Source of the DNA: Candidatus Omnitrophota bacterium
Lineage (GTDB): Bacteria > Omnitrophota > Gorgyraeia > Zapsychrales > Zapsychraceae
Length of the DNA stretch: 64,000 nucleotides
NCBI GenBank assembly: GCA_015233195.1
Contig: JADFYE010000004.1
Coordinates: 66,411-130,410 of the forward strand
Direction of reading: 5' to 3'
Shown here: positions 2,181 through 59,872 of the stretch, piece by piece
Layout: each line of letters starts with the position of its first letter
Numbering within the stretch: the first letter of the stretch is position 1
Made by a program: the position numbers and the translations under genes
Notes under the pieces: generated by a model
Databases searched by the model: none
Told to the model about the DNA's origin: nothing
Seen by the model: only the letters and a program-made list of their open reading frames with translations

Positions 2181-3657
2181 AGCCAATAAAATACAATATA
2201 AATTTTTGTTTAAGAATATCTCGTGGCTGTTCTTGGGACGGATATTCGCGAAATTTATTTCTTTGTTGGTTTTGCCAATTGTGACGCGGTATATGTCGCC
2301 TGAGTCGTATGGTATTGTGGATTTATTTTTGGTAGAGGCTGCATTGCTTGGGGAATTATTCAGTTTGAGTTTTACGGGATTCGCGGCGCGTATTATTTAC
2401 AAATATGATCGTACTAATCATGAATTATGCAGGCAGTATATAGGTGTGATTTTATTCTATATCTTGATATTATCGACGATAGGATTATGTATTGCGTTGC
2501 CATTTGCGCAAAAGATTAATACCCTGATTATCGGACCGGTTCCGATGCCTAATCCGTATATAACAAGTTTTCCAATTATCTATGCGTTTTTCATGAGTTT
2601 TTTCACATTTACCACTAATGGTTTTATCAGCCTTCAACAGAATAAGAAATTATTTTTATGTGAATTCGCGGAATTTTTGCTGATTCTTCCTGCGCAGCTG
2701 GTCGGGCTGGTTTGGTTTAAATTCACGTGGGTTGAGGTCGTGACTCTGCAATTGATCGGAAAGATTATTGTGACTGTGTTTTCATTGTGGTTAATGCGTA
2801 AGGATATCGGATTTTCTGTAAAGCGCTTGAGAATATTCAAGAAAGCTTTTTGGTACAGCATTCCGTTTGTTCCTTTGAATTTCAGCTCTTGGATACAGGA
2901 ACAGACTGGTAAGATTTTTCTTGGTCATTTTGGGGCGATCTCCAGCGTTGGGGTTTATTCTGTCGGTAATAAATTGAGCACCGGATTCCAATTGTTTTCC
3001 AGACCGGTTATGACTTCTTTGAAACCTGAGATCTCAAAACGCTTGGATCAAAATAATGTGAATGTTCAAAAAGACATTAAAGATTTTTTTGGATTGTTTT
3101 TTACCGGTTCGTTATTTTTGATTTTTATTATTGCGGTATTCAGTCCTGAATTGGTCGCGTTTTTTGCTGATTCGAGATATGCCTCTGCCAGCCATGTTAT
3201 TCCTTTCATGGTTTTGGCGTTAATGTTTAATGAATTAACCGGAGTGTTCCAACTAAAATTTATTTATAAAAATTTGACTGTATATTTTCCCATTATCACA
3301 TTTACTACCGCGGTCATAACCGTTATTCTTAATTACTTTTTAATTGCCCGGTTTAAAATCGTCGGTGTTGCCATGTCAGCTTTAATCGTAAGTTTTTTGA
3401 CATTTTTTATGACTTATGTATTATCGCAAAGACTGCATCGCACATATTACGCGTTGCGGGAAAATTTTGGTTTTTTAATTTTGGGAGCGGGATTATTCGC
3501 TTTGCAGTATTTCGTGGGTTTTTGTCAACATTGGGTGGTTAAGCTTATATTGATCATGGTGTACACGGTGATTCTTTACAGGGATTTATTAAAAACGAAT
3601 GGACGATTCGCGGAGATAAAGAAGATGGTATCTCAAAAACTCGGGTTTAATATTTAA
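2158..3657 (+). CDS. Wzx-like polysaccharide/oligosaccharide flippase (MOP superfamily)
   Basis: 499-aa polytopic protein. N-terminus SWLFLGRIFAKFISLLVLPIVTRYMSPESYGIV is typical of Wzx-type polysaccharide biosynthesis proteins. An alternative ATG lies at 2170. Confidence 0.65.
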   Translation: MRVTMVSEANKIQYKFLFKNISWLFLGRIFAKFISLLVLPIVTRYMSPESYGIVDLFLVEAALLGELFSLSFTGFAARIIYKYDRTNHELCRQYIGVILFYILILSTIGLCIALPFAQKINTLIIGPVPMPNPYITSFPIIYAFFMSFFTFTTNGFISLQQNKKLFLCEFAEFLLILPAQLVGLVWFKFTWVEVVTLQLIGKIIVTVFSLWLMRKDIGFSVKRLRIFKKAFWYSIPFVPLNFSSWIQEQTGKIFLGHFGAISSVGVYSVGNKLSTGFQLFSRPVMTSLKPEISKRLDQNNVNVQKDIKDFFGLFFTGSLFLIFIIAVFSPELVAFFADSRYASASHVIPFMVLALMFNELTGVFQLKFIYKNLTVYFPIITFTTAVITVILNYFLIARFKIVGVAMSALIVSFLTFFMTYVLSQRLHRTYYALRENFGFLILGAGLFALQYFVGFCQHWVVKLILIMVYTVILYRDLLKTNGRFAEIKKMVSQKLGFNI

Positions 3658-16739: not shown

Positions 16740-17690
16740 ATGAAAATTCTTATTACAGGCGCGATGGGTTATGTTGGCGGTCGGTTGAGTGAGTATTTAC
16801 TATCGTTATATTCGAAAGAACAATTATTTTTAGCTACAACCAGAATAGATCCGCCGGTTTGGGCGCAGGGCTTTCCTTTAGTCAGAATGGATCTTACTGA
16901 TTTTTTGTCGGTTGAACGGGTTATAAAAAATACGCGTCCGGATGTGGTTATTCATTTAGCAGGTTTGTCTCAGTCTGAATGCGAACAAGATCCTGCGTTG
17001 GCTGATCGGGTTAATGTTGATGGTACAAAAACATTGGTTCAAATATGCGGTGCAAATGGGGTAAGTAGATTTTTATTCATGTCTACTTTTCAAGTTTACG
17101 GACGAGCGTCCGGTGAAATATCAGAAACACAAACGGTTGATCCCAGAAATGAATATGCTCGGACTAAATTACTAGCTGAAACTATGGTACGGGATGGATC
17201 GGTCAGGGGTATGGTCCCTATAATTTTCAGGTTATCGAATGGTTTTGGTTATCCGATGGACGCGCGGGTCGCGGAAAGTGTTTTAAAATTAGCAGTGAAT
17301 TCTTTTTGTCGTCAAATAGTACGGGAACAGAAAATTCATGTTCATTCTGACCAGTATCGTAATTTTATTTCTTTAAATAATGTAGCACGGGCAGTTGAGT
17401 TTGTATTAGCGCAAGATCCGAATAATTTTGTTAACCCAGTTTTTAATGTTGGTGGTTTAGCTAATTTTTCGATGGGTGAACTAGCTCGGAAGATCGCATT
17501 GGTGTATAAGAATATGTATCAGGATAGGGATATTCCTATAACTGTGAACAAGGATCGCAGCGGCATTGGTATATGGTCGCCATTTATTTATAAGTATGAT
17601 CGTTTATCGGCTTTAGGATTTACAATAAAGGATGATATGGATCTGGAGATTAAAAAAACAATAATGTTTTTTGAGGAAAACAAATTATGA
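16740..17690 (+). CDS. NAD-dependent epimerase/dehydratase-family SDR, likely the 4-reductase or epimerase of the CDP-sugar branch
   Basis: MKILITGAMGYVGG (GxxGxxG) and YARTK (YxxxK). The ATG at 16740 comes directly after the upstream stop. Confidence 0.75.
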   Translation: MKILITGAMGYVGGRLSEYLLSLYSKEQLFLATTRIDPPVWAQGFPLVRMDLTDFLSVERVIKNTRPDVVIHLAGLSQSECEQDPALADRVNVDGTKTLVQICGANGVSRFLFMSTFQVYGRASGEISETQTVDPRNEYARTKLLAETMVRDGSVRGMVPIIFRLSNGFGYPMDARVAESVLKLAVNSFCRQIVREQKIHVHSDQYRNFISLNNVARAVEFVLAQDPNNFVNPVFNVGGLANFSMGELARKIALVYKNMYQDRDIPITVNKDRSGIGIWSPFIYKYDRLSALGFTIKDDMDLEIKKTIMFFEENKL

Positions 17691-18565
17691 GCGAGGTTTT
17701 GATTTCGGTTGTAATGCCGACTTATAATTTTGGACATTTAATTTCTCGGGCTATTGATTCAGTGATCCAACAGAAATATGGTGGTTGGGAACTGATAATC
17801 ATTGATAATTTTTCGTCGGATAATACTGAACAGGTTGTATCTGAATATAAAGATCATAGGATCCGCTATCTTAAGTTTGCAAATAATGGAGTTATTGCGG
17901 CTTCTCGGAATAAAGGTATTGAACTTGCTTGTGGAAAATTTGTAGCATTTCTTGATTCGGACGATTTATGGTATCCGTCTAAATTGGAAAAAGTTATTTT
18001 ATATTTCAAGGCGCATCCGGATTGTGATTTTCTTTGTCATGATGAGAATTTGTTGTATGAAGATGGTCATAGTAAAGCTATTAGATATGGTCCTTGGAAA
18101 AAGTATAAAGAATTATTATATTGTGGAAATAGTTTTTCAACCTCAGCGGTGGTAGCGAAAAAAAATATATTAACTTTATGTGATTGTTTTTCAACGGATT
18201 TGGATGAAGTTGGGGTTGAGGATTATGATCTTTGGTTGAAGATCTCGCGGGTTGGACGAATGGAATTTTTACATGAAGTATTGGGTGCATATTATATCCA
18301 TGAGGGCGCATTTTCTTCAAAAGTTGAACGGTTGTATAGTCATTTGTTAAATGTTTTGATGCGGCATTATTCTGAAATTGAATCAAAGAGTTGGTTGGAT
18401 TCTTTAAGAATGAGAATTCGTTTGGCAGAGATCTTGCGGCAAACCGCACGAGATTTACTTAAAAAAGGGGAAAAATCTGCTGCGTTACCATATAGCAAAA
18501 AGGCATTACTAACAAATCCGTTTTCATTTAAAGCAATTTATACTTTTTGTTCTGCAATTTTATAA
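17687..18565 (+). CDS. Glycosyltransferase family 2
   Basis: ISVVMPTYNFGHLISRAIDSV, IIIDNFSSDNT and a FLDSDD DxD motif. Confidence 0.85.
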   Translation: MSEVLISVVMPTYNFGHLISRAIDSVIQQKYGGWELIIIDNFSSDNTEQVVSEYKDHRIRYLKFANNGVIAASRNKGIELACGKFVAFLDSDDLWYPSKLEKVILYFKAHPDCDFLCHDENLLYEDGHSKAIRYGPWKKYKELLYCGNSFSTSAVVAKKNILTLCDCFSTDLDEVGVEDYDLWLKISRVGRMEFLHEVLGAYYIHEGAFSSKVERLYSHLLNVLMRHYSEIESKSWLDSLRMRIRLAEILRQTARDLLKKGEKSAALPYSKKALLTNPFSFKAIYTFCSAIL

Positions 18566-23447: not shown

Positions 23448-23471
23448 TATATAATTTGAAAGGGTATATTG

Positions 23472-23723
23472 ATGGGTGAAATGCGAGAGTCAATTAAAGC
23501 ACAGCTTAATAAAGTTTTTCAAAAGGTTTTTGATGATGAAGATATTCAAATAACTGATGCTACTGCGGCTAAGGATATTGATCAGTGGGATTCGTTGATG
23601 CATATAACGTTGATTGTATCTATAGAAAAAGAATTTAAGGTTCGTTTTAATACTTCAGAAGTTGGAAAACTCGAGAATGTTGGACAACTAATTAATCTAT
23701 TATTACAGCGTTTAGGAAAATGA
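23472..23723 (+). CDS. Acyl carrier protein
   Basis: About 83 aa. Phosphopantetheine attachment motif DQWDSLMHITL (DSL). Sits immediately downstream of the FkbH-like gene. Confidence 0.8.
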   Translation: MGEMRESIKAQLNKVFQKVFDDEDIQITDATAAKDIDQWDSLMHITLIVSIEKEFKVRFNTSEVGKLENVGQLINLLLQRLGK

Positions 23724-47474: not shown

Positions 47475-48692
47475 ATGAATAAACTTACAGTAAAAGACTT
47501 GAATTTAAAGGGAAAAAAAGTTATTGTCCGCTGCGATTTTAATGTGCCGTTGGACGAAAAATTGAACATTACTGATGATCGCCGGATTACGGAGTCATTA
47601 CCTACCATAAAATTTATTCTTGAACAAAAACCTGCTAAATTAATTTTGATGAGCCATTTAGGTCGTCCAGAAGGACAGGTTGTTCCTGAAATGAGCTTGA
47701 AACCTGTTGCTGCACGTTTGGAAAAATTATTAAATCAAAAAGTTCTTATGCTTGATGACTGCGTGGGTGATAAGGTTAAATCCGCGATAGGTGCCAGCAA
47801 GGAAACGGTTGTTCTTCTTGAAAATCTTCGTTTTTATAAAGCAGAGACCAAGAATGATCCTGAATTTTCAAAGAAATTAGCTGATCTGGCAGATGTTTAT
47901 GTTAATGATGCTTTTGGTACAGCTCACCGCGCTCATGCTTCAACTGAAGGGATTACTCATTATTTGAAATCTGCAGCAGGATTCTTACTTGAAAAAGAAA
48001 TTAAATATTTAGGGTTGGCAGTTGAGAATCCGGTTCGTCCGTTCGTAGTTATTTTGGGCGGGAAAAAAGTTTCGGATAAAATTATGCTGATTGAAAATTT
48101 ATTGAGCAAAGCCAATAAGATAATTGTAGGCGGTGGTATGGCATACACTTTTTTGAAAGCGCAAGGTGTGAGTATTGGAAAATCAATTTGTGAAAATGAT
48201 AAGTTGGATTTAGCTAAAGGGTTGTTGGAAAAAGCTAAAGCAGCTGGAGTTGAGATTGTATTAAGTGAAGATTATCTGGTTGTGCAGGATTTTGGCAAAC
48301 CTGAAACTAAAAAATATGTTGCGGGAAATATCGACGCTGATTGGGAAGCTATAGATATCGGACCTAAGACTATTGAAAAATTTAAAAAAGTTATTATGTC
48401 AGCTAAGACTATTGTTTGGAATGGTCCAATGGGCGTATTTGAAAATGATGCTTATGCTGGCGGCACCAAGGCGATTGCTGAATGTTTAGCTGGATTAAAA
48501 GGCGTTTCTACTATTATAGGCGGTGGTGATTCAGCTGCAGCAGTTGCTAAGTTTGGTTTAGAAGATAAAATGACTCACATTTCAACTGGCGGCGGCGCAT
48601 CTTTGGAATATTTGGAAGGGCAAGTTTTGCCGGGTATTGCAGCGTTAACTGAAAAATCAAGCGGATGTGGTTGTGGATGCTCATGTTCGTAA
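47475..48692 (+). CDS. pgk: Phosphoglycerate kinase with an unusual Cys-rich C-terminal tail
   Basis: VIVRCDFNVP, MSHLGRP and ISTGGGASLEYLEG. ATG 47475 lies 5 nt after AAGGTGG. The protein ends ...ALTEKSSGCGCGCSCS. Confidence 0.95.
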   Translation: MNKLTVKDLNLKGKKVIVRCDFNVPLDEKLNITDDRRITESLPTIKFILEQKPAKLILMSHLGRPEGQVVPEMSLKPVAARLEKLLNQKVLMLDDCVGDKVKSAIGASKETVVLLENLRFYKAETKNDPEFSKKLADLADVYVNDAFGTAHRAHASTEGITHYLKSAAGFLLEKEIKYLGLAVENPVRPFVVILGGKKVSDKIMLIENLLSKANKIIVGGGMAYTFLKAQGVSIGKSICENDKLDLAKGLLEKAKAAGVEIVLSEDYLVVQDFGKPETKKYVAGNIDADWEAIDIGPKTIEKFKKVIMSAKTIVWNGPMGVFENDAYAGGTKAIAECLAGLKGVSTIIGGGDSAAAVAKFGLEDKMTHISTGGGASLEYLEGQVLPGIAALTEKSSGCGCGCSCS

Positions 48693-48764
48693 GCAAATTT
48701 TTTAAGTTAAAATCGCAGGTATTTAAGCGGACGTAGATAATTCGAGCGGGCACGGCTCGTACAG
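48693..48764 (+). repeat. Truncated copy (left arm only) of the intercistronic foldback repeat family, copy A
   Basis: GCAAATTTT...GCAGGTATTTAAGCGGACGTAGATAATTCGAGCGGGCACGG is nearly identical to the left halves of copies C and D. Similarity stops inside the apical hairpin region. It starts on the base right after the pgk stop codon. Confidence 0.8.
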
Positions 48765-48780
48765 TAAAAAGGATAAATTA

Positions 48781-49545
48781 ATGAGAAAAATAATTATTGC
48801 TGGGAATTGGAAGTTAAATAAGACGATTAAAGAAGCTGTCGAGCTAGTTAATGGTTTAAAACAAGATTTAGCCCAGACTAAAGAAGTCGATATTGTGGTC
48901 TGTCCGGTATATCCAGCTTTATCCGAAGTCAGCAAATTAACTGCTGGTTCAAATATTGGGCTCGGCGCACAAGATTTATATTGGGAAGACGCTGGCGCGT
49001 TTACAGGTGAAGTTTCAGCGCCTTTATTAAAAGATGCTGGTTGCCAATATGTGATTATCGGACATTCAGAACGCCGTCAATTTTTTGGTGAAACCGACGC
49101 GACTGTTAATAAAAAAATTGGTGCTGCATTAAAACATGGGCTAACTCCGATTGTTTGCGTTGGTGAAGTTTTAGCAGAACGCGAATCAAATAAAACTTTT
49201 GATGTTATAAAAACTCAGGTTACAGGCGCTTTTTCAGGATACAGCGCTGAAGACATGAAAAAGATTATTATTGCTTATGAACCGGTTTGGGCGATTGGCA
49301 CAGGAAAGACTGCGTCTCCTGAACAGGCGCAAGAAGTTCATAAATTTATTCGTGATCTTTTAGTTAAGATGTATGATGTGGGAACAGCACAAACCGTACG
49401 TATCCAATATGGCGGAAGTGTTAAATCAGATAACGCGCGTGAATTGATGAGCCAGCCGGATATAGACGGTGCTTTAGTAGGCGGGGCGAGTTTAAAACGC
49501 GACCAGTTCGTCGCTCTTGTTCAAAACGCGAATGTAAAAAAGTAA
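48781..49545 (+). CDS. tpiA: Triosephosphate isomerase
   Basis: IIAGNWKLN, IIGHSERR, AYEPVWAIGTGKTA and QYGGSV. Confidence 0.95.
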   Translation: MRKIIIAGNWKLNKTIKEAVELVNGLKQDLAQTKEVDIVVCPVYPALSEVSKLTAGSNIGLGAQDLYWEDAGAFTGEVSAPLLKDAGCQYVIIGHSERRQFFGETDATVNKKIGAALKHGLTPIVCVGEVLAERESNKTFDVIKTQVTGAFSGYSAEDMKKIIIAYEPVWAIGTGKTASPEQAQEVHKFIRDLLVKMYDVGTAQTVRIQYGGSVKSDNARELMSQPDIDGALVGGASLKRDQFVALVQNANVKK

Positions 49546-49560
49546 GGCAGGTAAAATATT

Positions 49561-49962
49561 ATGATGGGTTTAGTTATTTTTCTTCATGTTGTTGCTTGTA
49601 TTTTGATCATTGTGGTGGTTTTGATTCAGGCAGGACGACAAGGTGGATTAGCTGCCGGGTTTTCGCAAGTTGAATCTTTGTTTGGCGCAAAGACCAGCGA
49701 ATCTTTGGTAAAAGCTACGACGATTTTTTTAACTATTTTTTTGGTCACAAGTTTGACTTTAACGATTTTGTCTTCTAGAAGAGAAAGATCATTATTGTCT
49801 AATGGATCAGTAAAAAAAGTTAGAGCAGCACAACCGGTTAAGCCTATAACAACACCAGCTGCGCAGCCTGTAACAACTCCAGTTGTTGATGCAGCTAAAT
49901 CTGTAGCTCCAAAAAGTACTCAAACGCAAGTAGTAGTTCCGGAACAAAAACCGGTGAAATAA
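49561..49962 (+). CDS. secG: Preprotein translocase subunit SecG with an extended Pro/Thr/Val-rich C-terminal tail
   Basis: Two-TM core with LIQAGRQGGLAAGF...LFGAKTSESLVKATTIFLTIFL, typical of SecG. The conserved pgk-tpiA-secG gene order supports the call. The tail carries AAQPVKPITTP / AAQPVTTPVV repeats. Confidence 0.75.
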   Translation: MMGLVIFLHVVACILIIVVVLIQAGRQGGLAAGFSQVESLFGAKTSESLVKATTIFLTIFLVTSLTLTILSSRRERSLLSNGSVKKVRAAQPVKPITTPAAQPVTTPVVDAAKSVAPKSTQTQVVVPEQKPVK

Positions 49963-49968
49963 TATTTC

Positions 49969-51705
49969 GTGAGAATGCGAATAAAAAAACTCTTAGATAG
50001 GTCTAAATTCTGTCTGGGAGTTTTTTTATTTTTTGGAATATTATTTTGTGTCAATACGGGTTTTGCTGCAGTCCCACAGTATGGTGGACAACTTGTAATG
50101 TCAACGACTAGTGATCCAAAGTCTTTTAATGATATTCTTGCCAAAGAAACCTCTACCAGCGACGTAACTGAATTGATATTTGAAGGGCTGACCCGCACCA
50201 ATGCTTATGATTTAAGTGTTGAGCCGAATTTGGCAGAGAGCTGGTCTGTAAGTGAAGATGGATTGAATTGGATATTTAACCTTCGTAAAGATGTGCTTTG
50301 GAATGATGGAAAGCCATTTACTGCGGATGATGTAGTCTTCACTTTTAATGATTTAATATTTAATCCTGACATCCCAAGCTCTTCCCGTGATATTTTTACA
50401 ATAGACGGAAAAGAATTTAAAGTTGAGAAAGTCGATGAGCACACTATAAAATTTATCCTTCCGACTAAATTTGCGCCGTTCTTACGCAGTATGTCACAAG
50501 CCATCCTTCCTAAACATAAATTAGAAAATGCAGTTAAAGAAAAAAAATTTAACTTTACTTGGGGTATTGATACTCCTCCGTCAGAGATCGTAGGTACTGG
50601 TCCGTTTTGTTTAAAAGAGTACAAGCCTGGCGAGCGGTTAGTGTTTACGCCGAATCCATATTATTGGAAAAAAGGAAAACAGGGAGAGCTTTTGCCGTAT
50701 TTAGGCAGGATTATTTATCTTATAGTGCAAAGTACGGATACCATGCTTTTAAAATTTATGGACGGAGAAATTGATTCTGTGGTTTTAAGGGGAACAGATT
50801 ATCCTTTGTTAAAAGAACGTGAAGCAAAAGGTAATTTTAAGATTTATGATTTGGGCCCGGATACTGGCACGAATTTTTTGGTATTTAATGAGAATACAGG
50901 AATAAATTCAAAAACAAGACAACCTTACGTGCCAGCTTACAAAATTAAATGGTTTAGTAATCCTGATTTTCGACGAGCAGTAGCGTATGCAGTTGATAAG
51001 AAACGTATTTTAGAAATAGTGCTGAATGGTTTGGGGTATGAACAATATTCAGCAATAAGTCAGACGCGGAAAGATTTTTATAATCCTAACGTTACAAAAT
51101 ATGAGTATGACCTTGATAAGGCGCGGGAATTTTTACATAAAGCGGGTTTTGTGGATAAAGATAGTGATGGAGTGCTTAAAGATACGGAGGGTAATAAATT
51201 AGAGTTTACTTTATTGACCAATGCTGGAGCTACTGAACGGATTCAAATGGCTGGGATTATTCGTCGGGATCTTGAAAATTTAGGCATGAAAGTTAATTTT
51301 CAGCTGGTTGAGTTTAATACCTTGGTCAGTAAATTGACTGGTACTTATGATTGGGATGCAATTATTTTAGGATTAACCGGCGGCGGATCTGACCCGCATT
51401 TTGGAAATAACGTATGGATGTCAAGCGGTCAGTTGCATATGTGGTATCCAGCGCAGAAAACTCCTGCCACAGAGTGGGAAAAAAGGATTGATGAAATATT
51501 TATTGCCGGAGTGCAGGAATTAGACGAGAAAAAACGTAAAGTTTTGTACGACGAATATCAGCAAATTGTGTCAGACCAAGTGCCGCTGATATACACTGTG
51601 CTTAATTCTAAATTAGTGGCAGTCAGAAATAAATTCGGCAACCTGCATCCGACTGAGTTTGGGGGAGTATTCCATAATTTGGAAGAAATTTATCAAATTA
51701 AATAA
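49969..51705 (+). CDS. ABC transporter substrate-binding protein, family 5 (peptide/nickel, OppA/DppA-like)
   Basis: 578 aa with an N-terminal signal peptide. Contains LAESWSVSEDGLNWIFNLRKDVLWNDGKPFTADDVVFTF, typical of SBP_bac_5. Start is GTG 49969 or ATG 49975. Confidence 0.85.
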   Translation: MRMRIKKLLDRSKFCLGVFLFFGILFCVNTGFAAVPQYGGQLVMSTTSDPKSFNDILAKETSTSDVTELIFEGLTRTNAYDLSVEPNLAESWSVSEDGLNWIFNLRKDVLWNDGKPFTADDVVFTFNDLIFNPDIPSSSRDIFTIDGKEFKVEKVDEHTIKFILPTKFAPFLRSMSQAILPKHKLENAVKEKKFNFTWGIDTPPSEIVGTGPFCLKEYKPGERLVFTPNPYYWKKGKQGELLPYLGRIIYLIVQSTDTMLLKFMDGEIDSVVLRGTDYPLLKEREAKGNFKIYDLGPDTGTNFLVFNENTGINSKTRQPYVPAYKIKWFSNPDFRRAVAYAVDKKRILEIVLNGLGYEQYSAISQTRKDFYNPNVTKYEYDLDKAREFLHKAGFVDKDSDGVLKDTEGNKLEFTLLTNAGATERIQMAGIIRRDLENLGMKVNFQLVEFNTLVSKLTGTYDWDAIILGLTGGGSDPHFGNNVWMSSGQLHMWYPAQKTPATEWEKRIDEIFIAGVQELDEKKRKVLYDEYQQIVSDQVPLIYTVLNSKLVAVRNKFGNLHPTEFGGVFHNLEEIYQIK

Positions 51706-51712
51706 AAATTAT

Positions 51713-52678
51713 ATGACCAAATATATTTTAAAACGTATTTTGATCGCGATACCTTTGTTGCTCGTGATGTCTATGCTGACATTTTTGCTCATGCATATGA
51801 CACCTGGCAATTTTTTTGATTCGCTCCGTCTTGACCCGCAAATATCCAAAGATACTATTGCCCGGTATGAACAATTATATAAATTAGACAAGCCTTGGTG
51901 GTACCAGTATGGGTATTGGCTAAAAAATATCGGACAGCTGCAATTCGGGTATTCGTTTTTTTACAATATTCCAGTAACCCAAGTTTTAGCGCCTCGTCTT
52001 TGGAATACTTTTATTTTGGCTTTTTCAAGTCTGTTGTTGACGTGGCTGGTAGCCATACCTTTAGGTATATGGGCTGCAGTTAACCGTGGTAAATGGGTCG
52101 ATAAAACTTTATCATTCTTATCTTTTTGCGGATTATCTATTCCAAGTTTCTTTTTGGCTTTACTGCTGTTGTATGTTGTTAGCATTATCGGCGGATTGCC
52201 TTTGGGTGGGATGCATAGCGCGTCGTATGATCTTATGCCGTGGTGGGGGAAGTTTTTTGATTTACTTAGGCATTTAATAATCCCAACGCTGGTAATTTCA
52301 GTAGGGTCTTTAGCTGCAATACAAAGGATCATGCGTGGGAATTTTCTTGAGGTTATGCGGCAGCAATATATTTTGACAGCAAGGGCAAAAGGTCTTCCAG
52401 AGACGAGAGTGTTGTATGTTCATGCTTTACGTAATGCTATAAATCCTTTGATAACATTGTTTGGTTATGAATTGTCGGGCTTGTTAAGCGGCGCGGCTTT
52501 GACTGAGATTATTTGTAATTGGCCGGGTTTAGGGTCATTGATGTTGACTGCGGTACGGTCGAAAGATATTTATTTGGTTATGGCGAGTATGTTGATGGGC
52601 GGGGTTTTGTTAGTATTAGGGAATTTGGTAGCGGATATTTTGTTGGCGTGGTCGGATCCGAGAATTAGGATTAAATAG
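51713..52678 (+). CDS. ABC transporter permease (OppB/DppB-like)
   Basis: MTKYILKRILIAIPLLLVMSMLTFLLMH N-terminus. EAA-loop region YILTARAKGLPETRVLYVHALRNA. The 51659 extension is unlikely. Confidence 0.9.
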   Translation: MTKYILKRILIAIPLLLVMSMLTFLLMHMTPGNFFDSLRLDPQISKDTIARYEQLYKLDKPWWYQYGYWLKNIGQLQFGYSFFYNIPVTQVLAPRLWNTFILAFSSLLLTWLVAIPLGIWAAVNRGKWVDKTLSFLSFCGLSIPSFFLALLLLYVVSIIGGLPLGGMHSASYDLMPWWGKFFDLLRHLIIPTLVISVGSLAAIQRIMRGNFLEVMRQQYILTARAKGLPETRVLYVHALRNAINPLITLFGYELSGLLSGAALTEIICNWPGLGSLMLTAVRSKDIYLVMASMLMGGVLLVLGNLVADILLAWSDPRIRIK

Positions 52679-52840
52679 GTTGAAAAGTCTCCGGTATTAC
52701 GCGGAACGCTTGTTTAACCCGGCGTGTTAAACTACGCTCGGCGATAATTCTCGCTCTCATACGCTTTTCGCGTATGAACCGTGCCCGCTCGAATTATCAA
52801 CGTCCGTTTAAATACCAGTGACTTTTCAACTAAAGTTTTC
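52679..52840 (-). repeat. Intercistronic foldback repeat, copy B (inverted orientation relative to C and D)
   Basis: The reverse complement aligns along its whole length with copies C and D (GGTATTTAAACGGACGTTGATAATTCGAGCGGGCACGG ... GAGAGCGAGAATTATCGCCGAGCGTAGTTTAACACGCCGGGTTAAACAAGCGTTCCGCGTAATACCGG). Its termini are degenerate. It begins right after the oppB-like stop codon. Confidence 0.85.
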
Positions 52841-52925
52841 TCCTCTCCGACCTTTGGGGAGAGGGCAGGGGCCGTTCGCGGGAGCTCCCGGCACGCCCTC
52901 GGGACATTACGTCCTCGGTTGTGAG
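52841..52925. other. GC-rich, strongly self-complementary 85-bp insert of unknown nature
   Basis: By my count 58 of 85 bases are G or C, in an otherwise AT-rich genome. Contains CCTCTCC...GGAGAGG, CCGTTCGCGG and the 12-nt perfect palindrome CGGGAGCTCCCG. Lies between repeat copy B and the oppC-like start. Confidence 0.5.
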
Positions 52926-52944
52926 GGGTTATAAAATTAGATAT

Positions 52945-54042
52945 ATGAAAAATATTACACATAGATCTACAAGTCCTACGGTTGAAGCGTGGCGGAATTT
53001 TTTTAAAGCGCGCTGGGCGGTGGTCTGTCTTTTTATTTTGTTGAGTTTTTATGCAGGCGCATTATTTGCTGATTTTATATCGCCATATGCTTATGACAAT
53101 GAAGACCGTAATTTATCTTACGCTCCTGCGACTAAGATTCACTTTATTTCTAAAGGGATGCCTGCGTGGCCATATATTTATCCGGTATCATTTACTTTTG
53201 ATCAGGTACATAAGCGGGTTTATGTGGAAGATAAAACGCAAGCCATGCCTTTGAAATTTTTTCATTCAGGTGATGAATATAAGTTTTTAGGATTGTTTAA
53301 AACTAAATTGCATTTATTTGGCGTTAAAGAGCCAGCGCGTATTTATTTATTCGGCGGGGATAGCCGGGGACGGGATATGTTCTCACGGATTTTATTTGGC
53401 GGTCGTATTTCTTTGACTATTGGTTTGATAGGTGTGGCGATCTCATTTACTTTAGGCTTGCTGGTCGGAGGCATTGCTGGTTATTTTGGCGGACGAGTGG
53501 ATTCAATTTTGATGAGGGTGTGTGAAATGTTCATGTTAGTGCCGGGTTTTTATTTGATGTTGGCTTTGCGCAGTGCAGTACCGAATAATTTTAATTCATG
53601 GCAAATTTATTTTTCGATTGTTGTGATTTTGTCGTTTATAGGGTGGGCGGGCTTAGCTCGGATTATTCGTGGGATGAGTATTTCTTTACGCGAACGCGAT
53701 TATGTTTTAGCTGCGAAAACTATGGGCTTGTCTGATTTTCAAATAATTGTGCGCCATATTTTACCGCATACAGTTTCATATTCTATCGTCGCAATAATGT
53801 TGTCGATCCCTGGATATATTTTAGGTGAAGCTGCATTAAGTTTGATTGGGTTGGGGATCCAGGATCCATTACCGAGTTGGGGAAACATGTTATCTGATGC
53901 TATGGCAATAGCTCATGTTCAATTGCATCCGTGGGTGTTGATACCAGGTGTGTTTATTTTTCTTACTGTGATGTGTTTTAATGTGATTGGAGATAGATTA
54001 AGGGATTGTCTTGATCCGATGATGCGTGGTGAAAAATGTTAA
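52945..54042 (+). CDS. ABC transporter permease (OppC/DppC-like)
   Basis: N-terminal WRNFFKARWAVVCLFILL, the core transmembrane domain, and YVLAAKTMGLSDFQIIVRHILPH. ATG at 52945. The GTG at 52921 lies inside the GC-rich insert. Confidence 0.9.
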   Translation: MKNITHRSTSPTVEAWRNFFKARWAVVCLFILLSFYAGALFADFISPYAYDNEDRNLSYAPATKIHFISKGMPAWPYIYPVSFTFDQVHKRVYVEDKTQAMPLKFFHSGDEYKFLGLFKTKLHLFGVKEPARIYLFGGDSRGRDMFSRILFGGRISLTIGLIGVAISFTLGLLVGGIAGYFGGRVDSILMRVCEMFMLVPGFYLMLALRSAVPNNFNSWQIYFSIVVILSFIGWAGLARIIRGMSISLRERDYVLAAKTMGLSDFQIIVRHILPHTVSYSIVAIMLSIPGYILGEAALSLIGLGIQDPLPSWGNMLSDAMAIAHVQLHPWVLIPGVFIFLTVMCFNVIGDRLRDCLDPMMRGEKC

Positions 54043-54791
54043 AAATCGAAAAATTAAATGTTGAGGTTGCTGATCGAGCTTTGATCAAAGATGTAAGTTT
54101 TGAAATTGGTCAAGGTCAGATTTCTGCTTTGGTCGGAGGATCAGGTAGCGGTAAGACTACAATTGGTTTATCTATTCTACGCTTATTGAATCCGGCGTTA
54201 AGGATAATTAGTGGTAAGGTATTGCTATCTGGACAAGACCTGATGGGCTTATCAGAAAATGAAATGCGTGAGGTTAGGGGAAAAGATATTGGTATGGTTT
54301 TTCAAGAGCCATTGAATGCGTTTAATCCACTTTTTACTCTTGGCTTTCAGATCGATGAAGTTTTACGTTTTCATACTCAGTTAAGTAAGGCTGTGAGGGA
54401 AAAACGGATTTTAGAATTGTTGGATATGGTCGGGTTACCTGAACCGCGTCGGGTTATAAAAAGCTATCCGCATCAATTAAGCGGAGGAATGCGGCAACGA
54501 GCTATGATAGCTCAGGCAATAGCGGTTAGACCAAAACTTTTAATTGCAGATGAGCCCACCAGCAGTTTGGACGTAACATTGCAGGCAACGATAATGGAAT
54601 TATTTAAGAAGCTCCAGAAGGATTTGGGCTTGACCATGATATTGATCACGCATGATTTGCCTATGGCGCAGCACATGGCGGATGAGTTGGTGGTTTTGTC
54701 AGAGGGGAAAGTGGTTGAGCAAGGCGATTGCATGAGTGTGATGAATGCCCCGCAATCGGAATATACGAAAATATTGATGGATTGTATGTGA
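54036..54791 (+). CDS. ABC transporter ATP-binding protein (OppD/DppD-like, short form)
   Basis: Walker A GGSGSGKT, signature LSGGMRQR, Walker B LLIADEPTSSLD. Confidence 0.9.
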   Translation: MLKIEKLNVEVADRALIKDVSFEIGQGQISALVGGSGSGKTTIGLSILRLLNPALRIISGKVLLSGQDLMGLSENEMREVRGKDIGMVFQEPLNAFNPLFTLGFQIDEVLRFHTQLSKAVREKRILELLDMVGLPEPRRVIKSYPHQLSGGMRQRAMIAQAIAVRPKLLIADEPTSSLDVTLQATIMELFKKLQKDLGLTMILITHDLPMAQHMADELVVLSEGKVVEQGDCMSVMNAPQSEYTKILMDCM

Positions 54792-54819
54792 ATTGAGGTA
54801 AGAGATAGAGAGGTAAAAA

Positions 54820-54987
54820 GCAAATTTTAAAAGTGAAAAGCGAAGGTATTTAAGCGGACGTAGATAATTAGAGCGGGCACGGATCCACGCGAAAGCGTGG
54901 AGAGCGAGAATTATCTTCGAGCGTAGTTTAATACGCCGGATTAAACAAGCGTTCCGCGTAATGCCGAAGATTTTCATAAAAATTTGC
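54820..54987 (+). repeat. Intercistronic foldback repeat, copy C (full length)
   Basis: Terminal inverted repeats GCAAATTTT (54820) and AAAAATTTGC (54978-54987). Inner arms GGTATTTAAGCGGACG / CGTTCCGCGTAATGCC and GATAATT.. / GAATTATC. Apical hairpin TCCACGC-GAAA-GCGTGGA at 54884-54901. Confidence 0.85.
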
Positions 54988-55001
54988 TTAACATACGTAT
55001 T

Positions 55002-55766
55002 ATGACGCCTATTTTAGAATTAAATAATGTTAAAAAATATTTCGGCTCAGTCAAAGCTGTTGACGGGGTGGATCTGTCTATTGTGCCAGGCGAAAGTTTG
55101 AGTATTGTCGGTGAATCCGGATGCGGTAAGACTACTTTAGTCCGTATGATGATCGGACTTTATGCTTGTGATAAAGGCTCAATAATTTTTTACGGTAACA
55201 ATATAACTTCTGCTGACCGATCAGCGCGTCAGTATTTAAAATCTATGCAAATGGTTTTCCAGGACCCATTCAGCAGCTTAGATCCTCGTTATACTATTCG
55301 CCGGGTTTTATATGAACCTATGAGCTTAAAGCCGGAGATGTTTCGATCTGCGTCTGAAAAAGATTTGCGAGTAAAACAATTATTAAAAGCGGTTGGTTTA
55401 TCAAACGACATGTTGGATCGCTATCCGCACGAATTCAGCGGGGGAGAAAGACAACGTATTGCTATAGCCAGGGCTTTGGTAGTTAATCCAAAGATGCTTA
55501 TTTTAGATGAGGCTATTTCAGCTTTAGATGTTTTGATCCAAAAACAAATTTTGGATCTGTTAGTAGAGTTACGAAAACAATTTGCGCTTACTTATGTTTT
55601 TATTACGCATAATATGCGGGTTGCCCGAAAGATCAGCGATCGAATTGCAGTAATGTATCAGGGAAAAATAGTTGAATTGGGTGAGACTGAGCAGGTTTTT
55701 AACGCGCCGAACCATATTTATACTAAACAGTTGATTGACTCTGCTATACAGTATAAGGTAAACTAA
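55002..55766 (+). CDS. ABC transporter ATP-binding protein (OppF/DppF-like)
   Basis: Walker A GESGCGKTT, signature FSGGERQR, Walker B LILDEAISALD. ATG 55002 lies 15 nt after the repeat end and has no obvious SD. Confidence 0.9.
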   Translation: MTPILELNNVKKYFGSVKAVDGVDLSIVPGESLSIVGESGCGKTTLVRMMIGLYACDKGSIIFYGNNITSADRSARQYLKSMQMVFQDPFSSLDPRYTIRRVLYEPMSLKPEMFRSASEKDLRVKQLLKAVGLSNDMLDRYPHEFSGGERQRIAIARALVVNPKMLILDEAISALDVLIQKQILDLLVELRKQFALTYVFITHNMRVARKISDRIAVMYQGKIVELGETEQVFNAPNHIYTKQLIDSAIQYKVN

Positions 55767-55798
55767 CCATCCGTAACCCCAGGGGTTACGGATGGTTT
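55767..55798 (+). terminator. Candidate intrinsic terminator or attenuator (near-perfect palindrome directly after the oppF-like stop)
   Basis: CCATCCGTAACCCC-A-GGGGTTACGGATGG gives a 14-bp GC-rich stem followed by TTT. The T-tract is short and the next gene starts only 15 nt later, so termination may be partial. Confidence 0.5.
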
Positions 55799-55812
55799 AA
55801 AATGGGATATCA

Positions 55813-58035
55813 ATGTTCGAAAAAATTTTAAAACAACTTAATTTTTTTATCGGGATAATAGCCCTTGGCATTTTGTTTGGGTTTGTATTCCAAGCTGCTC
55901 AGGTCGAGATACGTGATCTTGACCTTTGGCTGCATTGGGGTTTGGGAAAATATATCACCCAGACCGGAATGATTCCGCACGTTGATATGTTGTCTTGGAC
56001 TATGACTGGTAAGTCGTGGATCGACCATGAATGGTTGTTTCAAGTTGTGATTTACAATATTCAAAATTTGTGGGGGTGGAACGGATTGTTGGTGATGCAG
56101 GGGTTGGTAGTATTGGCGATTTTAGGTCTATTATTTTTTATGGCGAATGATAGAAATAAGCAGATAATTGTTATTTTGCTTTTGTATATTGTCGCTACCA
56201 TAATGGAACAAAGGTTTACGGTTAGACCTGATCTTTTCAGTCTTTTATTTTTTTCTTTATATATTTTTGTGTTAGCTTTACACCTTGATAAAAAATGGGC
56301 AATGCCGTTTTTGGTGTTTATTCAGATAATTTGGGTAAATGTTCATGGGTTTTTCTTTTTTGGTCCGTTGTTTGTTTTAATAGGAATATTATCTGAGTTT
56401 ATTAAACGAAAAGTTAAGTTACCGTGGGAATGGAATTCTATCGGACGGTTGAATGATTCAGAGTATAAAAATTTAAAAATCATGTTTGGGTTAATGGTCT
56501 TGGCATGTTTCGTGAATCCATATTTTTGGAGAGGGGCAGGATATCCGGTAGATGTTTTTATTTCAACCTTAACTGGCGCTAACAAAGTGTTTTTTGCTTA
56601 TATTCAGGAACTTAAAAAACCTTTGATCTGGCGGGATTTGTTTTCATTGGAGCATGAAGGCTCATATAAATTGATGATTTTGTTCTCGGGTATATCATTT
56701 ATTTTTAACCGCCGTAAGGTGGATATCAGTGCTTTATTTTTATGGTTATTGTTCTTAGGCTTTTCTTTGGGCGCGGTACGGAATCTGCCGTTTTTTGCTG
56801 TAGCAGCGTATTTGGTTTTTATAACAAATATTTACGAACTTAAAGCCGCTGATATTGTTCCAGTGACTTTTAAAAAACCTATTTTTATTCCGATTACTGA
56901 GATTGCGGTAAAATTATTATTAATGGTGAGTATTTTTAACGCGTTTAATCAGGATATTTTCACCGGATATTATGATTTTGACACTAATAAACGAAAAAGT
57001 GAGTATGGTGATGTGTCATTAAGAGAATATCCCAGCCATGCGGTTGATTTTTTGGTTGAGAATAAAATTAAAGGTAAATTTTTTAATGATTTTAATTCCG
57101 GCGCGTATTTGATAGGAAGGGCTTGGCCGAATATTAAGGTTTTTATAGACGGAAGAACTGAATTTTATGGCAAGGATTTTTTTGAGAATTATATTAAGGT
57201 CTGGCAAAAAGGCGAAAAAGACGCGATCAAAAAATATGTGGAAGATGCCGGGGCTACTGGCGCGTTTTTGAATTCCGCGCGGCAAAATATACCTAAAGAG
57301 ACGTTGCGTAATTTTTATAATTCTCCAAATTGGAAAGTAATATATTTTGATTGGGATGCTGTGATATTTTTGAGGGATATCGAGGAGAATAAAGCGCTGA
57401 TTAAACAGTTTGGGATTGATCTGGCTAAGTGGCAGCCTAAAGAAGAAGATATTTATAAATTGCGCACTGAACGGGTCAGACCGTTTCGTAATCAAAATCG
57501 GGCGGATATGTTGTTGAATTTAAAATTATATGGTCCGGCTATGGCAGAAGCTAAAGAAGCTATGAAAGTATCGCCCGGATTTTATGAGGCGCATTACACC
57601 ATCGGTAGAATTTATTTTGAGGAGAAAAAATTTAAAGAAGCTTTTCCATATTTGCGTTTTGCGGCTGCAGTAGAGCCGTCGGATGATGCGGCGCAGTATG
57701 ACTTTGCGGAATGCTACTATAATTTAAAAATGTATGATCTGGCGCTAAAGCAATATAATGATATCAAAGCATCTTGGCCCAAAGATCTGGTAGCGCGCTA
57801 TTGGATTGCTAAAGTGTTGGCTAAACAGGAAAAATACGAGGAGGCTTTTAAGGAAATAAGCGCCTTTCACAAGAGTAAACCAAAAGAGGTGCTAAAAGTT
57901 TTAGAAGTCGGGGATATTGCGTTTGAGCAGAAAAATATAGAGCAGGCGAAAAAGATTTATGATTTGGTTAAGAATGCAGAAACGGATAAGGCGGAAGTGA
58001 AAGCAAGGTTTGAAAAGTTAAAGAGCGGAAAATAA
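55813..58035 (+). CDS. Polytopic membrane protein with C-terminal TPR repeats (GT-C-like glycosyltransferase candidate)
   Basis: 740 aa. The N-terminal 400 aa or so are polytopic, with the acidic loop VEIRDLDLWLHWG after TM1. The C-terminal 200 aa are TPR-like (YEAHYTIGRIYFEEKKFKEAFPYLRFAAAVEP, AQYDFAECYYNLKMYDLALKQY). Confidence 0.5.
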   Translation: MFEKILKQLNFFIGIIALGILFGFVFQAAQVEIRDLDLWLHWGLGKYITQTGMIPHVDMLSWTMTGKSWIDHEWLFQVVIYNIQNLWGWNGLLVMQGLVVLAILGLLFFMANDRNKQIIVILLLYIVATIMEQRFTVRPDLFSLLFFSLYIFVLALHLDKKWAMPFLVFIQIIWVNVHGFFFFGPLFVLIGILSEFIKRKVKLPWEWNSIGRLNDSEYKNLKIMFGLMVLACFVNPYFWRGAGYPVDVFISTLTGANKVFFAYIQELKKPLIWRDLFSLEHEGSYKLMILFSGISFIFNRRKVDISALFLWLLFLGFSLGAVRNLPFFAVAAYLVFITNIYELKAADIVPVTFKKPIFIPITEIAVKLLLMVSIFNAFNQDIFTGYYDFDTNKRKSEYGDVSLREYPSHAVDFLVENKIKGKFFNDFNSGAYLIGRAWPNIKVFIDGRTEFYGKDFFENYIKVWQKGEKDAIKKYVEDAGATGAFLNSARQNIPKETLRNFYNSPNWKVIYFDWDAVIFLRDIEENKALIKQFGIDLAKWQPKEEDIYKLRTERVRPFRNQNRADMLLNLKLYGPAMAEAKEAMKVSPGFYEAHYTIGRIYFEEKKFKEAFPYLRFAAAVEPSDDAAQYDFAECYYNLKMYDLALKQYNDIKASWPKDLVARYWIAKVLAKQEKYEEAFKEISAFHKSKPKEVLKVLEVGDIAFEQKNIEQAKKIYDLVKNAETDKAEVKARFEKLKSGK

Positions 58036-58037
58036 AT

Positions 58038-58913
58038 TTGAAAAAATTATTTATATTAACAATTTTGGCATTGTTTATTACCGGATCTGCGTTTGGCGAA
58101 TTTGTTAAGAAGCTAAATGTTATTACGACGATATTTCCGCTTTATGATATGGCTAGGGAGGTGGGAGGGGATAAAGTTGAAGTTACGAAATTGTTGCCTG
58201 CTGGAGTAGAAGCGCATACTTTTGATCCTAAAGCTAAAGATATTGTTAAGATAAATAATGGTGATGTTTTTGTTTATACGGGGGAATTTATGGAGCCGTG
58301 GGCGAAAGATATTTTTCGCGGCGTATCAAATTCGTCCTTGTTAATTGTAGACGCTAGTAAAGGTGTCACATTAATGAAAGGAAATGATCCACATATTTGG
58401 CTTGATCTTTCTTATGCTAAGATTATGACTGATAACATTGCAAAGGCTTTCGGTCAGAAGGATCCAGCGAATAAAGATTTTTATATGGCTAATGCTTCAG
58501 CATACAAAGCGCGTCTAGCTGATCTTGACCAGAGGTTTACTTCTGATTTAACTTCTTGTAAAATTAAAACAATTGTTTATGCCGGTCATTTTGCATTTGG
58601 TTATTTTGCTAAGCGTTATGGGTTAGCACAAGTTTCTCCGTATAAAGGTTTTTCTCCTGACGCTGAACCGTCGCCTAAAAGTGTAGCAGAACTAATTAAT
58701 ACTTTGAAAAGTTCAGGGTCAAAAGTTATTTATTATGAAGAATTGATAGACCCTAAAATCGCTCGTGTGATCTCGGAAGAAACCGGCGTAAAAATGGATT
58801 TATTAAATGGCGGGCATAATGTTTCGGATGATGAAATGAAGTCAGGGATAACGTTTTTGTCTATCATGGAAGAGAATTTGAAAAAATTAAGGCAAGGATT
58901 GCAATGTCAGTAA
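58038..58913 (+). CDS. znuA: Metal (zinc/manganese) ABC transporter substrate-binding protein, TroA/ZnuA family
   Basis: Signal peptide MKKLFILTILALFITGSAFG. Contains VITTIFPLYDM, GVEAHTFDP and DPHIWLD. TTG start 3 nt after the upstream stop. Confidence 0.8.
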   Translation: MKKLFILTILALFITGSAFGEFVKKLNVITTIFPLYDMAREVGGDKVEVTKLLPAGVEAHTFDPKAKDIVKINNGDVFVYTGEFMEPWAKDIFRGVSNSSLLIVDASKGVTLMKGNDPHIWLDLSYAKIMTDNIAKAFGQKDPANKDFYMANASAYKARLADLDQRFTSDLTSCKIKTIVYAGHFAFGYFAKRYGLAQVSPYKGFSPDAEPSPKSVAELINTLKSSGSKVIYYEELIDPKIARVISEETGVKMDLLNGGHNVSDDEMKSGITFLSIMEENLKKLRQGLQCQ

Positions 58914-59656
58914 GCGCGATCAAAGTTCAGGACTTAACAGTTTTTTATCAAAATTCAGAGGTTTTAAGCGGAGTTTCACTTGAAATTGCTTTGGGCGATT
59001 ATGTTGGTATCGTCGGACCAAATGGTTCGGGAAAAACTACATTGATAAAATCTATGGTCGGATTGATTGAGCCGGCACAGGGAAATATTGAGATATTAGG
59101 CACTGCGCTTGCTGCTTTTACTAAATGGTCAAGTGTTGGTTATCTGCCCCAGAAGAATAATGTAATGGATCCGCGTTTTCCGGCTAACGTATATGAGGTT
59201 ATAGCTTCAGGAATATTATCTGCAAAACGTTTTCCTAAGATTTTGAACAAACAGGATCAAATGCGAATTGAAAATACTTTGGAAATTTTGAATATTGTTG
59301 ATCTGCGAGATCATTTGATCGGCAGGCTTTCCGGCGGGCAGCAACAGCGGGTTATGTTAGCGCGCGCTTTAGTTAATCAGCCGTCAATTTTGCTTTTGGA
59401 TGAGCCGACAGTGGCTTTGGATCCGCATACGCGTGAAAGTTTTTATACGCTTTTGCAAAAACTTAATAAAGAACAGAACATTACAATTCTGTTAGTTTCA
59501 CATGATCCGGTTACTGTGGGCAATTTCGCGACCAAGTTGTTGTATTTAGATAAGAAAGTAATTTTTTATGGAAAATTTGGGGAATTTTGCAGTGCTAAAA
59601 ATATGAAAGATTATTTTGGTTTAGAAGCGCAGCATTTAATGTGTCATCAGCATTAA
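58904..59656 (+). CDS. znuC: Metal ABC transporter ATP-binding protein
   Basis: Walker A GPNGSGKTT, signature LSGGQQQR, Walker B LLLDEPTVALD. Confidence 0.85.
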   Translation: MSVSAIKVQDLTVFYQNSEVLSGVSLEIALGDYVGIVGPNGSGKTTLIKSMVGLIEPAQGNIEILGTALAAFTKWSSVGYLPQKNNVMDPRFPANVYEVIASGILSAKRFPKILNKQDQMRIENTLEILNIVDLRDHLIGRLSGGQQQRVMLARALVNQPSILLLDEPTVALDPHTRESFYTLLQKLNKEQNITILLVSHDPVTVGNFATKLLYLDKKVIFYGKFGEFCSAKNMKDYFGLEAQHLMCHQH

Positions 59657-59701
59657 CGTCAGAAGATAGACGATAGAAGTAAGAGGGTAAAAAAATAACA
59701 A

Positions 59702-59872
59702 GCAAATTTTTATATGGAAAATTGCAGGTATTTAAGCGAACGTTGATAATTCGAGCGGGCACGGTTCGTATGCTGTAAGCAGACGAGAGCGAGAATTATC
59801 GTCGAGCGCAGTTTAATACGCCGGATGAAACAAGCGTTTCGCGTAATGCCGAATATTTTCACAAAAATTTGC
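59702..59872 (+). repeat. Intercistronic foldback repeat, copy D (full length)
   Basis: Terminal inverted repeats GCAAATTTTT (59702) and AAAAATTTGC (59863-59872). Arms GGTATTTAAGCGAACG / CGTTTCGCGTAATGCC. Apical hairpin TCGTATGC-TGTAA-GCAGACGA at 59766-59786. Lies between the znuC-like and znuB-like genes. Confidence 0.85.

Follow-up and report, generated by a model that had tools for sequence, protein, structure and literature searches.

The 64 000-nucleotide stretch of the Candidatus Omnitrophota bacterium contig JADFYE010000004.1 analysed here (the window) carries genes that nearly all lie on the + strand (all but about three) and that are tightly packed or overlapping. Its GC skew is strongly positive over its whole length (0.17–0.35), and a large part of it codes for envelope polysaccharide biosynthesis. 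Four copies of a foldback repeat without open reading frames (ORFs), denoted A to D, are inserted at cistron junctions of this stretch, namely pgk/tpiA, oppB/oppC, oppD/oppF and znuC/znuB (Table 1). They belong to a family with lineage-specific outer stems, at least 100 copies of which share a core of about 95 nt that forms a three-way junction. This cross-phylum foldback family with a conserved folded core is a new finding, absent from Rfam 15 and from the literature searches made.

Copies and junctions in the window

The central 20-mer GATAATTNGAGCGGGCACGG occurs four times in the window, still four times when three mismatches are allowed, and never in 100 dinucleotide-preserving shuffles. 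A repeat finder returned A, C and D as mutual direct repeats and B as an inverted repeat of all three, which confirms the four copies that a first-pass annotation of the sequence had located. The full copies measure 162–171 nt and are 82–89% identical in pairs; the GC content of the copies (0.40–0.46, with 42–46% in the full copies) exceeds that of their surroundings (about 0.36–0.41), as had been noted. With the covariance model R2 (described below), copies B, C and D score 91.7 bits (E 1.3e-20), 76.6 bits (E 6.9e-17) and 84.4 bits (E 8.2e-19), respectively (77–92 bits); all three belonged to the training set of the model. Copy A, which reaches 12 bits only and shares 85–89% identity with the corresponding stretch of B, C and D, is indeed a left half, although the similarity runs past the end first given for it (48764) to about 48769.

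The ends of the copies are less uniform than first described. Terminal inverted repeats had been attributed to all full copies; they are present in C and D, the termini of which read (AA)GCAAATTTT and AAAATTTGC(TT), inverted repeats of 10–11 nt, and the left end of A carries the same repeat. Copy B has no GCAAATTTT terminal repeat and is closed by its own 11-bp stem (GTTGAAAAGTC/GACTTTTCAAC). Similarly, three of the four copies were said to start within a few bases of the upstream stop codon, which is true of two: A abuts it (0 nt) and B overlaps the TAG, whereas C begins 28 nt and D 45 nt past the stop. The downstream genes begin 16–90 nt past the element. A repeat unit reaching beyond the terminal repeats of C and D was considered and dropped, as the likeness of their flanks lies within the range of shuffled sequences.

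Between the listed ORFs of the window there are, by our reading, six spacers longer than about 80 nt, four of which are accounted for by the copies. The earlier statement that the repeat is inserted only between cistrons is therefore correct as to the junctions, but its 'only' carries little information because the window has hardly any other non-coding space. The orthologous operons are more telling. In two relatives with the same gene order (loci L003 and L004, pgk 75% identical), pgk and tpiA overlap by 4 nt, oppB and oppC overlap or are 13 nt apart, and oppD and oppF are 1–40 nt apart; the znuC/znuB junction is an overlap in L122 and a gap of 2 nt in L123. In the sister metagenome-assembled genome (MAG) GCA_015233115.1 (locus L121, pgk 92% identical), oppB and oppC overlap and oppD and oppF are 19 nt apart. 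The covariance model, run with filters off on the 21 kb of L121, gave no match; the sister is without the element at three of the four sites. Because the orthologous junctions overlap or are at most 40 nt apart, the copies are insertions and not ancestral spacers, and they account for spacers of 90–250 nt at four otherwise overlapping junctions of the window.

Locus L121 has two foldback repeats unrelated to the family, one at pgk/tpiA (11219–11441, arms GTATGTAGTATGTCGTATGTGGTATGT) and one at oppC/oppD (17563–17747, arms GTTGTAGGGGCGATCTCCTGATCGCCCGC); these operon junctions have therefore been colonised repeatedly by different elements. In the window, copy B is adjoined by an 80-nt stretch (52841–52920) of about 72% G+C in a genome of 36% G+C, which occurs once in the window. 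It should be noted that 31 nt of this stretch (CCGAGGACGNAATGTCC(C)GAGGGNGTGCCG) are 90% identical to L114 200–229, a borderline match (E 0.077) that likewise lies about 70 nt from a family member. The GC-rich stretch may be a second small structured repeat.

Table 1. Positions of the repeat copies and of the core elements in copy C (window numbering), and of three copies from the Aminicenantes MAG D4M11_12 (locus numbering)
Feature	Position	Strand	Description
Copy A	48693..48769	+	Truncated 5' half: left terminal repeat, 5' arm of outer stem, loop GAGCGGGCACGG; between pgk stop (48690-48692) and tpiA start (48781)
Copy B	52679..52840	-	Full length, inverted; between oppB-like stop (TAG 52676-52678) and oppC-like gene; core 52702-52799
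Copy C	54820..54987	+	Full length; between oppD-like stop (54789-54791) and oppF-like start (~55003); core 54862-54956
Copy D	59702..59872	+	Full length; between znuC-like stop (59654-59656) and znuB-like start (59908); core 59744-59841
5' internal loop (copy C), GAGCGGGCACGG	54871..54882	+	Invariant among the window copies (four of four); one half of the search pattern
P3, variable apical hairpin (copy C), TC-CACGCGAAAGCGTG-GA	54884..54901	+	Contains GCGAAAGC; stems covary among B, C and D and family-wide
3' internal loop (copy C), GAGAGCGAG	54900..54908	+	With the 5' loop can form tandem G.A plus two G-C pairs; other half of the search pattern
P4 hairpin (copy C), GTTTAAT-ACGCCGG-ATTAAAC	54926..54946	+	Stem covaries across the family; loop NCGCYGG(G) conserved
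D4M11_12 copy, L011	4955-5170		Target-site duplication of 9-10 bp
D4M11_12 copy, L016	4400-4625		Target-site duplication of 9-10 bp
D4M11_12 copy, L055	40-265	-	Target-site duplication of 9-10 bp

A folded core shared across phyla

The architecture of the element comprises long outer stems, a helix P2, two loop strands around the variable hairpin P3, a GAGCG-containing junction and the hairpin P4. When B, C and D were folded together, the apical hairpin differed in sequence and kept its pairing; the pairings of the inner arms and the conserved central block are as described in the first-pass annotation. The pairing that this joint fold of three sequences gave for the third helix was replaced by the P4 hairpin, which in the window is AGTTTAAT-ACGCCGG-ATTAAAC with its conserved loop. 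A K-turn and a group II intron domain V were also considered for the internal loop and rejected, since by eye the loop lacks their defining geometry or sequence, and the copies tested have no Rfam match.

The pairing is supported by covariation in a core alignment of 61 sequences (A5) with a four-helix structure, from which the covariance model R2 was built. In A5, 80.9% of the cells are paired, compared with 32–49% when the partners are slid by one to three columns, and the covariation score is 0.501 compared with 0.143 in shuffles, none of 500 of which reaches 0.501. Changes on both sides are seen in 20 of the 26 pairs. Helix 4 (P4) has 91% of its cells paired, with both-side changes in seven of its eight pairs. 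This evidence is independent of how the sequences were retrieved, because the helices are absent from the search pattern. About 30 unpaired nucleotides are constant in the core, while the stem sequences are rewritten between lineages.

An exact 20-mer that includes helix P2 had no match in a set of one genome per species and two matches in JGI metagenomes, both without the rest of the element and judged to be due to chance. This failure showed that the helices are not conserved, and the search pattern was therefore limited to unpaired loop nucleotides (GAGCGGGCACGG, a gap of 8–38 nt, GAGAGCGAG). Scanned against one genome per species, it retrieved at least 116 loci, with about eight chance matches estimated under uniform base composition. 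The full architecture is present in about 95 of 118 matches among the matches listed. About half of the 23 that failed the filter are chance matches in GC-rich coding DNA, the others being family members that are cut by a contig end or have an atypical P4 loop. The covariance model finds about 110 matches in the genome loci; at least ten of these are additional copies that deviate from the exact pattern, one of them with GAAGAGCGAAG replacing GAGAGCGAG.

According to the record labels, the matches listed comprise about 28 loci from Omnitrophota, about 16 from Aminicenantes and about 20 from many classes of Patescibacteria, and further ones from MAGs called Planctomycetia, Eubacteriales, Deltaproteobacteria, Margulisiibacteriota and Makaraimicrobium. 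That the hosts come from at least three phyla is solid. Several loci contain two or three copies per 8 kb, and contig ends are a frequent location; this clustering and position fit a high-copy repeat. Pairs in which a minus copy is followed by a plus copy at a distance of 85 to about 1000 nt are also frequent (L050 2525–2802, L076 2738–3058, L079 3865–4551 and L027 2405–3597).

The element matches no Rfam riboswitch or small RNA family: at the gathering score, Rfam 15 gave no match to it either in the window or across 17 loci of the family, and a search with three copies at E<=10 returned nothing relevant. No match was obtained by blastn against the PLSDB plasmids and INPHARED phages, and none in IMG/VR with the two-loop pattern (the 5' loop alone gave 47 matches there, all in GC-rich coding sequence); a phage or plasmid origin was dropped on these grounds. 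Copy C had no blastn match (word size 11) at E<=0.01 in 5,426 complete Escherichia coli genomes, and text searches of the literature by loop sequence and by keywords found no description of the family.

Small foldback repeats are usually lineage-specific and defined by their ends. The present family inverts this rule, as its junction is retained in phyla whose members are mostly uncultured, ultra-small or host-dependent, whereas none of the stems has kept its sequence. Such conservation of the core implies a specific molecular partner or activity. The covariance model can be used for counting copies, for tracing the spread between phyla and for phylogenetic profiling in search of the partner, and it could flag a common cause of assembly breaks in the MAGs of these groups.

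Strand and molecule of the fold

We refer to the strand reading GAGCGGGCACGG as the GA strand. Its minimum free energy (MFE) is lower than that of its complement in 90 of 93 elements, by 10.9 kcal/mol on average, and it has 459 G.U pairs compared with 274 on the complement. DNA parameters give the same strand preference for B, C and D. Selection therefore acts on the structure of one strand alone. With respect to both flanking genes, the GA strand has the antisense orientation in 35 cases and the sense orientation in 17, so that in most copies host transcription would yield the wrong strand. Moreover, the flanks of the GA strand are C-rich in 57 of 91 elements (44 versus 17 where the skew is strong). 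Stable hairpins may be selectively disfavoured on the lagging-strand template, or the folded strand may be selectively disfavoured in mRNAs; either could give rise to this orientation bias.

The loops also bear on the nature of the folded molecule. In RNA families, a variable hairpin usually ends in a GNRA or UNCG tetraloop, whereas the 78 distinct P3 hairpins include 39 triloops, 20 of them GNA, and only two of their 18 tetraloops are GNRA and none UNCG. Sixteen of the GNA triloops are closed by C-G (C-GAA-G nine times and C-GGA-G four times). Among the predicted 2x2 internal loops, 97 of 158 are tandem G.A, 57 of these being symmetric CGAG/CGAG, a context in which sheared tandem G.A pairs are especially stable. 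The mini-hairpins d(GCGAAGC) and d(GCGAAAGC) melt at 76.5 C, compared with 39 C for r(GCGAAAGC) (PMC13037366), and the stability of d(GNA) loops depends on C-G closure (PMC3201870). Copy C holds the canonical DNA mini-hairpin sequence GCGAAAGC exactly. Together, the orientation, the predicted P3 loops and the predicted G.A mismatches favour a GA strand that folds as DNA rather than as RNA, although each of the three is compatible with RNA as well.

Proposed mode of movement and rival explanations

In our reading, the window sequences are old copies (A being truncated) of a mobile foldback element that is non-autonomous and would be recognised as single-stranded DNA by an enzyme; we give this reading about an even chance of being right. 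Folding of the GA strand as single-stranded DNA would occur, for instance, at replication forks or once the strands have separated, and the conserved junction would serve as the module by which a trans-acting enzyme recognises the element in order to copy or move it. Candidate enzymes would be of the HUH/Y1 type or other single-strand-specific recombinases, as for REP/REPIN and for the ends of IS200/IS605. Outside the Aminicenantes MAG D4M11_12, the combination of missing duplications, lineage-specific ends, a conserved centre and a single-strand fold fits single-strand-DNA enzymes better than a DDE transposase. If the partner is such an enzyme, the family would represent a new DNA-moving system in candidate phyla. 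A broader proposal, which we put forward only tentatively, is that of a previously unrecognised class of prokaryotic mobile elements defined by a folded single-stranded three-way junction, with the junction serving either as the DNA recognition module of a single-strand-specific enzyme or as a catalytic or protein-sequestering nucleic acid in the service of propagation.

By analogy, REP/RAYT and IS200/IS605 appear to be the closest models for the movement. REP and REPIN sequences are likewise short, non-coding, extragenic and multicopy, their single strands fold as long imperfect hairpins, they lie between genes, often just past stop codons, and they lack a target duplication; their RAYT enzyme is supplied in trans from a single-copy gene located elsewhere. 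REP units are stem-loops of 20–40 bp with an unpaired terminal GTAG or CGTC tag, usually arranged in head-to-head pairs, and no enzyme is known for the CGTC-tagged ones (PMC3733652). Yet a REP is a simple stem-loop, whereas the present element is an asymmetric three-way junction of about 95 nt and not a dimer, and REP families are mostly specific to a species or genus, whereas this family spans phyla. The inner end of the 5' arm often carries a CGT(C/A/T) motif; its position is internal, unlike that of the terminal tag of REPs. In addition, no RAYT/IS200-like gene was found around the copies, as a phmmer search with an approximate IS200 TnpA query returned nothing in 5,213 ORF segments covering about 1 Mb.

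The ends of IS200/IS605, PATEs and integron attC sites resemble the element in that folded single-stranded DNA is recognised, structure and a few unpaired bases are conserved over stem sequence, one strand is active and orientation is related to replication. However, IS200/IS605 ends have small subterminal hairpins without terminal inverted repeats and insert beside a fixed tetra- or pentanucleotide, an arrangement that we did not recognise here. At three copies (A, C and D) the left flank ends in AA, which amounts to only three sites in an AT-rich genome; by inspection, the flanks of multicopy sets in other genomes have no fixed motif. As for attC, it carries R''/R' core sites (RYYYAAC / GTTRRRY) in a cassette array beside intI, in contrast to ends that read GCAAATTTT / AAAATTTGC in housekeeping operons.

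The first-pass annotation had likened the repeat to Correia, ERIC and RUP/BOX elements. The Correia/NEMIS, ERIC/IRU and RUP/BOX families are indeed ORF-free foldback repeats of 100–200 nt, intergenic or intercistronic, co-transcribed and variably present at orthologous sites. Nevertheless, each is confined to one genus or family and is defined by its ends, duplications or modular boxes, whereas in the present family the ends vary and conservation is confined to the core. The data do not support its assignment to the Correia, ERIC or RUP families. For ERIC/IRU (127-bp consensus), the E. coli genomes searched with copy C revealed no relationship. Correia/NEMIS elements have 26-bp terminal repeats and a TA duplication and occur in Neisseria only, while the flanks here are AA on the left and TT on the right for C, and AA and GG for D, with no TA duplication and an Omnitrophota host. 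The mRNA-level role suggested on the same model is not favoured by the family-wide data either, given the roughly twofold excess of antisense over sense orientation of the GA strand and its DNA-like loops and mismatches.

The window copies would now be passengers in polycistronic mRNAs. The inserts have separated cistrons that overlap in relatives, and translational coupling of these genes has therefore probably been lost. As RNA, the sense copies have predicted hairpins of about -50 to -67 kcal/mol MFE; these could alter mRNA decay or processing, as REP or ERIC do, which would be a side effect and not the conserved function. Nothing in the family-wide data points to mRNA effects as the reason for the conservation of the core.

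Several points weigh against recognition of the element as single-stranded DNA by an enzyme. No trans-acting enzyme was found around the copies, and the mechanism is read from their anatomy alone. The orientation bias of about 2:1 is moderate, 8-kb loci cannot separate gene direction from replication direction, and three of the four window copies have the minority orientation (sense to the genes, on the G-rich strand). The loop statistics come from MFE predictions with RNA parameters, some of the hairpins are related by descent, and G.T wobbles and tandem G.A mismatches are also compatible with RNA. The constancy of the 21 'invariant' loop nucleotides is due in part to their use in retrieving the loci, and the taxon labels of many third-party (TPA) MAGs are crude. 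Finally, three copies in D4M11_12 have 9–10-bp direct repeats (ATCCAAGGA, ACCATCCCT and GGGATCAAG) beside their terminal repeats, which point to a DDE transposase in that genome.

Alternatively, the conserved core could be a functional structured RNA, for which the foldback repeat would be only the vehicle: a cis-acting mRNA element (for processing, stability or cistron insulation), a small self-cleaving ribozyme, or a free-standing protein-binding non-coding RNA acting through repeated GAGC(G) and tandem-GA motifs. Constant unpaired nucleotides, covarying helices and a hairpin of variable length form a riboswitch- or ribozyme-like pattern, and Rfam-type RNA motifs from comparative genomics similarly show covarying multi-helix junctions, constant loops and a variable hairpin, mainly in uncultured lineages. 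The strong strand asymmetry of the fold, the enrichment of G.U pairs on one strand, the three window copies lying sense within operons and the tandem sheared G.A pairs, which are common protein-binding and tertiary motifs in RNA, agree with this explanation as well. We nevertheless find it rather unlikely. In contrast to such motifs, the family is multicopy, lies in both orientations to genes and has a loop repertoire atypical for RNA, with P3 capped mainly by C-GNA-G triloops and hardly ever by the usual tetraloops. In the prevailing antisense orientation (35 versus 17), an RNA would need its own promoter within spacers of 60–200 nt. In addition, the neighbouring genes are functionally unrelated, and even the permissive Rfam 15 search gave no relevant match. 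Should the active form prove to be RNA, the family would be a new widespread structured RNA.

An ordinary miniature inverted-repeat transposable element (MITE), mobilised by a DDE transposase that acts on the terminal inverted repeats, and carrying the core as a passenger or as a remnant of the parent insertion sequence, is in our view unlikely. The element is short, multicopy and ORF-free, C and D have terminal inverted repeats, and the D4M11_12 copies have direct repeats. The earlier description of a MITE-like foldback family thus holds for a repeated ORF-free foldback, but not for a lineage-restricted, end-defined MITE, as the ends differ completely between lineages and the core of about 95 nt crosses phyla; an end-acting transposase would preserve the reverse, and a strand-specific fold is unexpected of a double-stranded substrate. 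No target-site duplication was found at the four window copies, in agreement with the first description, and duplications beside the inverted-repeat ends of 88 elements were no better than in displaced controls; outside D4M11_12, the sole long match is a palindrome belonging to the stem. Recent near-identical copies, such as the L027 pair, have no consistent duplication.

The neighbouring genes point in the same direction, with no transposase near any copy. Clustering by blastp of the ORFs within 3 kb of 98 elements gave no recurrent family, the largest cluster covering six loci at varying distances. The 146 nearest ORFs matched 196 Pfam families, none of them by more than three members; the 25 listed families, which include all those with three members, are housekeeping families with no transposase, integrase or reverse transcriptase among them. 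The 20 window proteins scanned likewise include no transposase, as the first-pass annotation had stated for the surroundings of the copies. A coding version of the element with an ORF in the variable hairpin was rejected, since the half-sites found in the loci are merely truncated or diverged copies.

As for D4M11_12, the core of the L055 copy is inverted relative to its outer arms when compared with L011 and L016, whereas 15 other comparable pairs keep their polarity. A parvovirus-like rolling-hairpin 'flip/flop' was dropped because this inversion is seen in one case only. In this genome, a copy may have been captured in a conventional MITE, or an inversion may have taken place between the arms.

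Finally, a host-useful single-stranded-DNA signal (an ssi-like priming site or hairpin promoter) that is spread by recombination and kept by selection, and is not selfish, would suit the strand-specific fold and the GC-skew-biased orientation, and GAA/GGA-triloop mini-hairpins do occur in the phage G4 origin, the ssiA priming signal and the hairpin promoters of the phage N4 virion RNA polymerase (PMC13037366), but it is very improbable in view of the patchy presence even among sister genomes, the truncated and decayed copies such as A, the very uneven copy density with assemblies broken at copies as at repeats, and the insertions that split operons intact in relatives.

Three further features lie outside the element. 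Upstream of copy A, the pgk product, which is identical to MBF0483621.1, has an unusual C-terminal tail of Cys and Gly (...EKSSGCGCGCSCS*; window 48651–48692); by eye, a similar Cys-rich end of pgk is present in the sister MAG and absent from the 75%-identical relatives. Further long non-coding spacers lie at 23448–23719 in the window and at 12652–12972 in L121, the latter with a hairpin-forming sequence. Locus L015 carries a fluoride riboswitch at 3246–3313 (Rfam RF01734, 56 bits).

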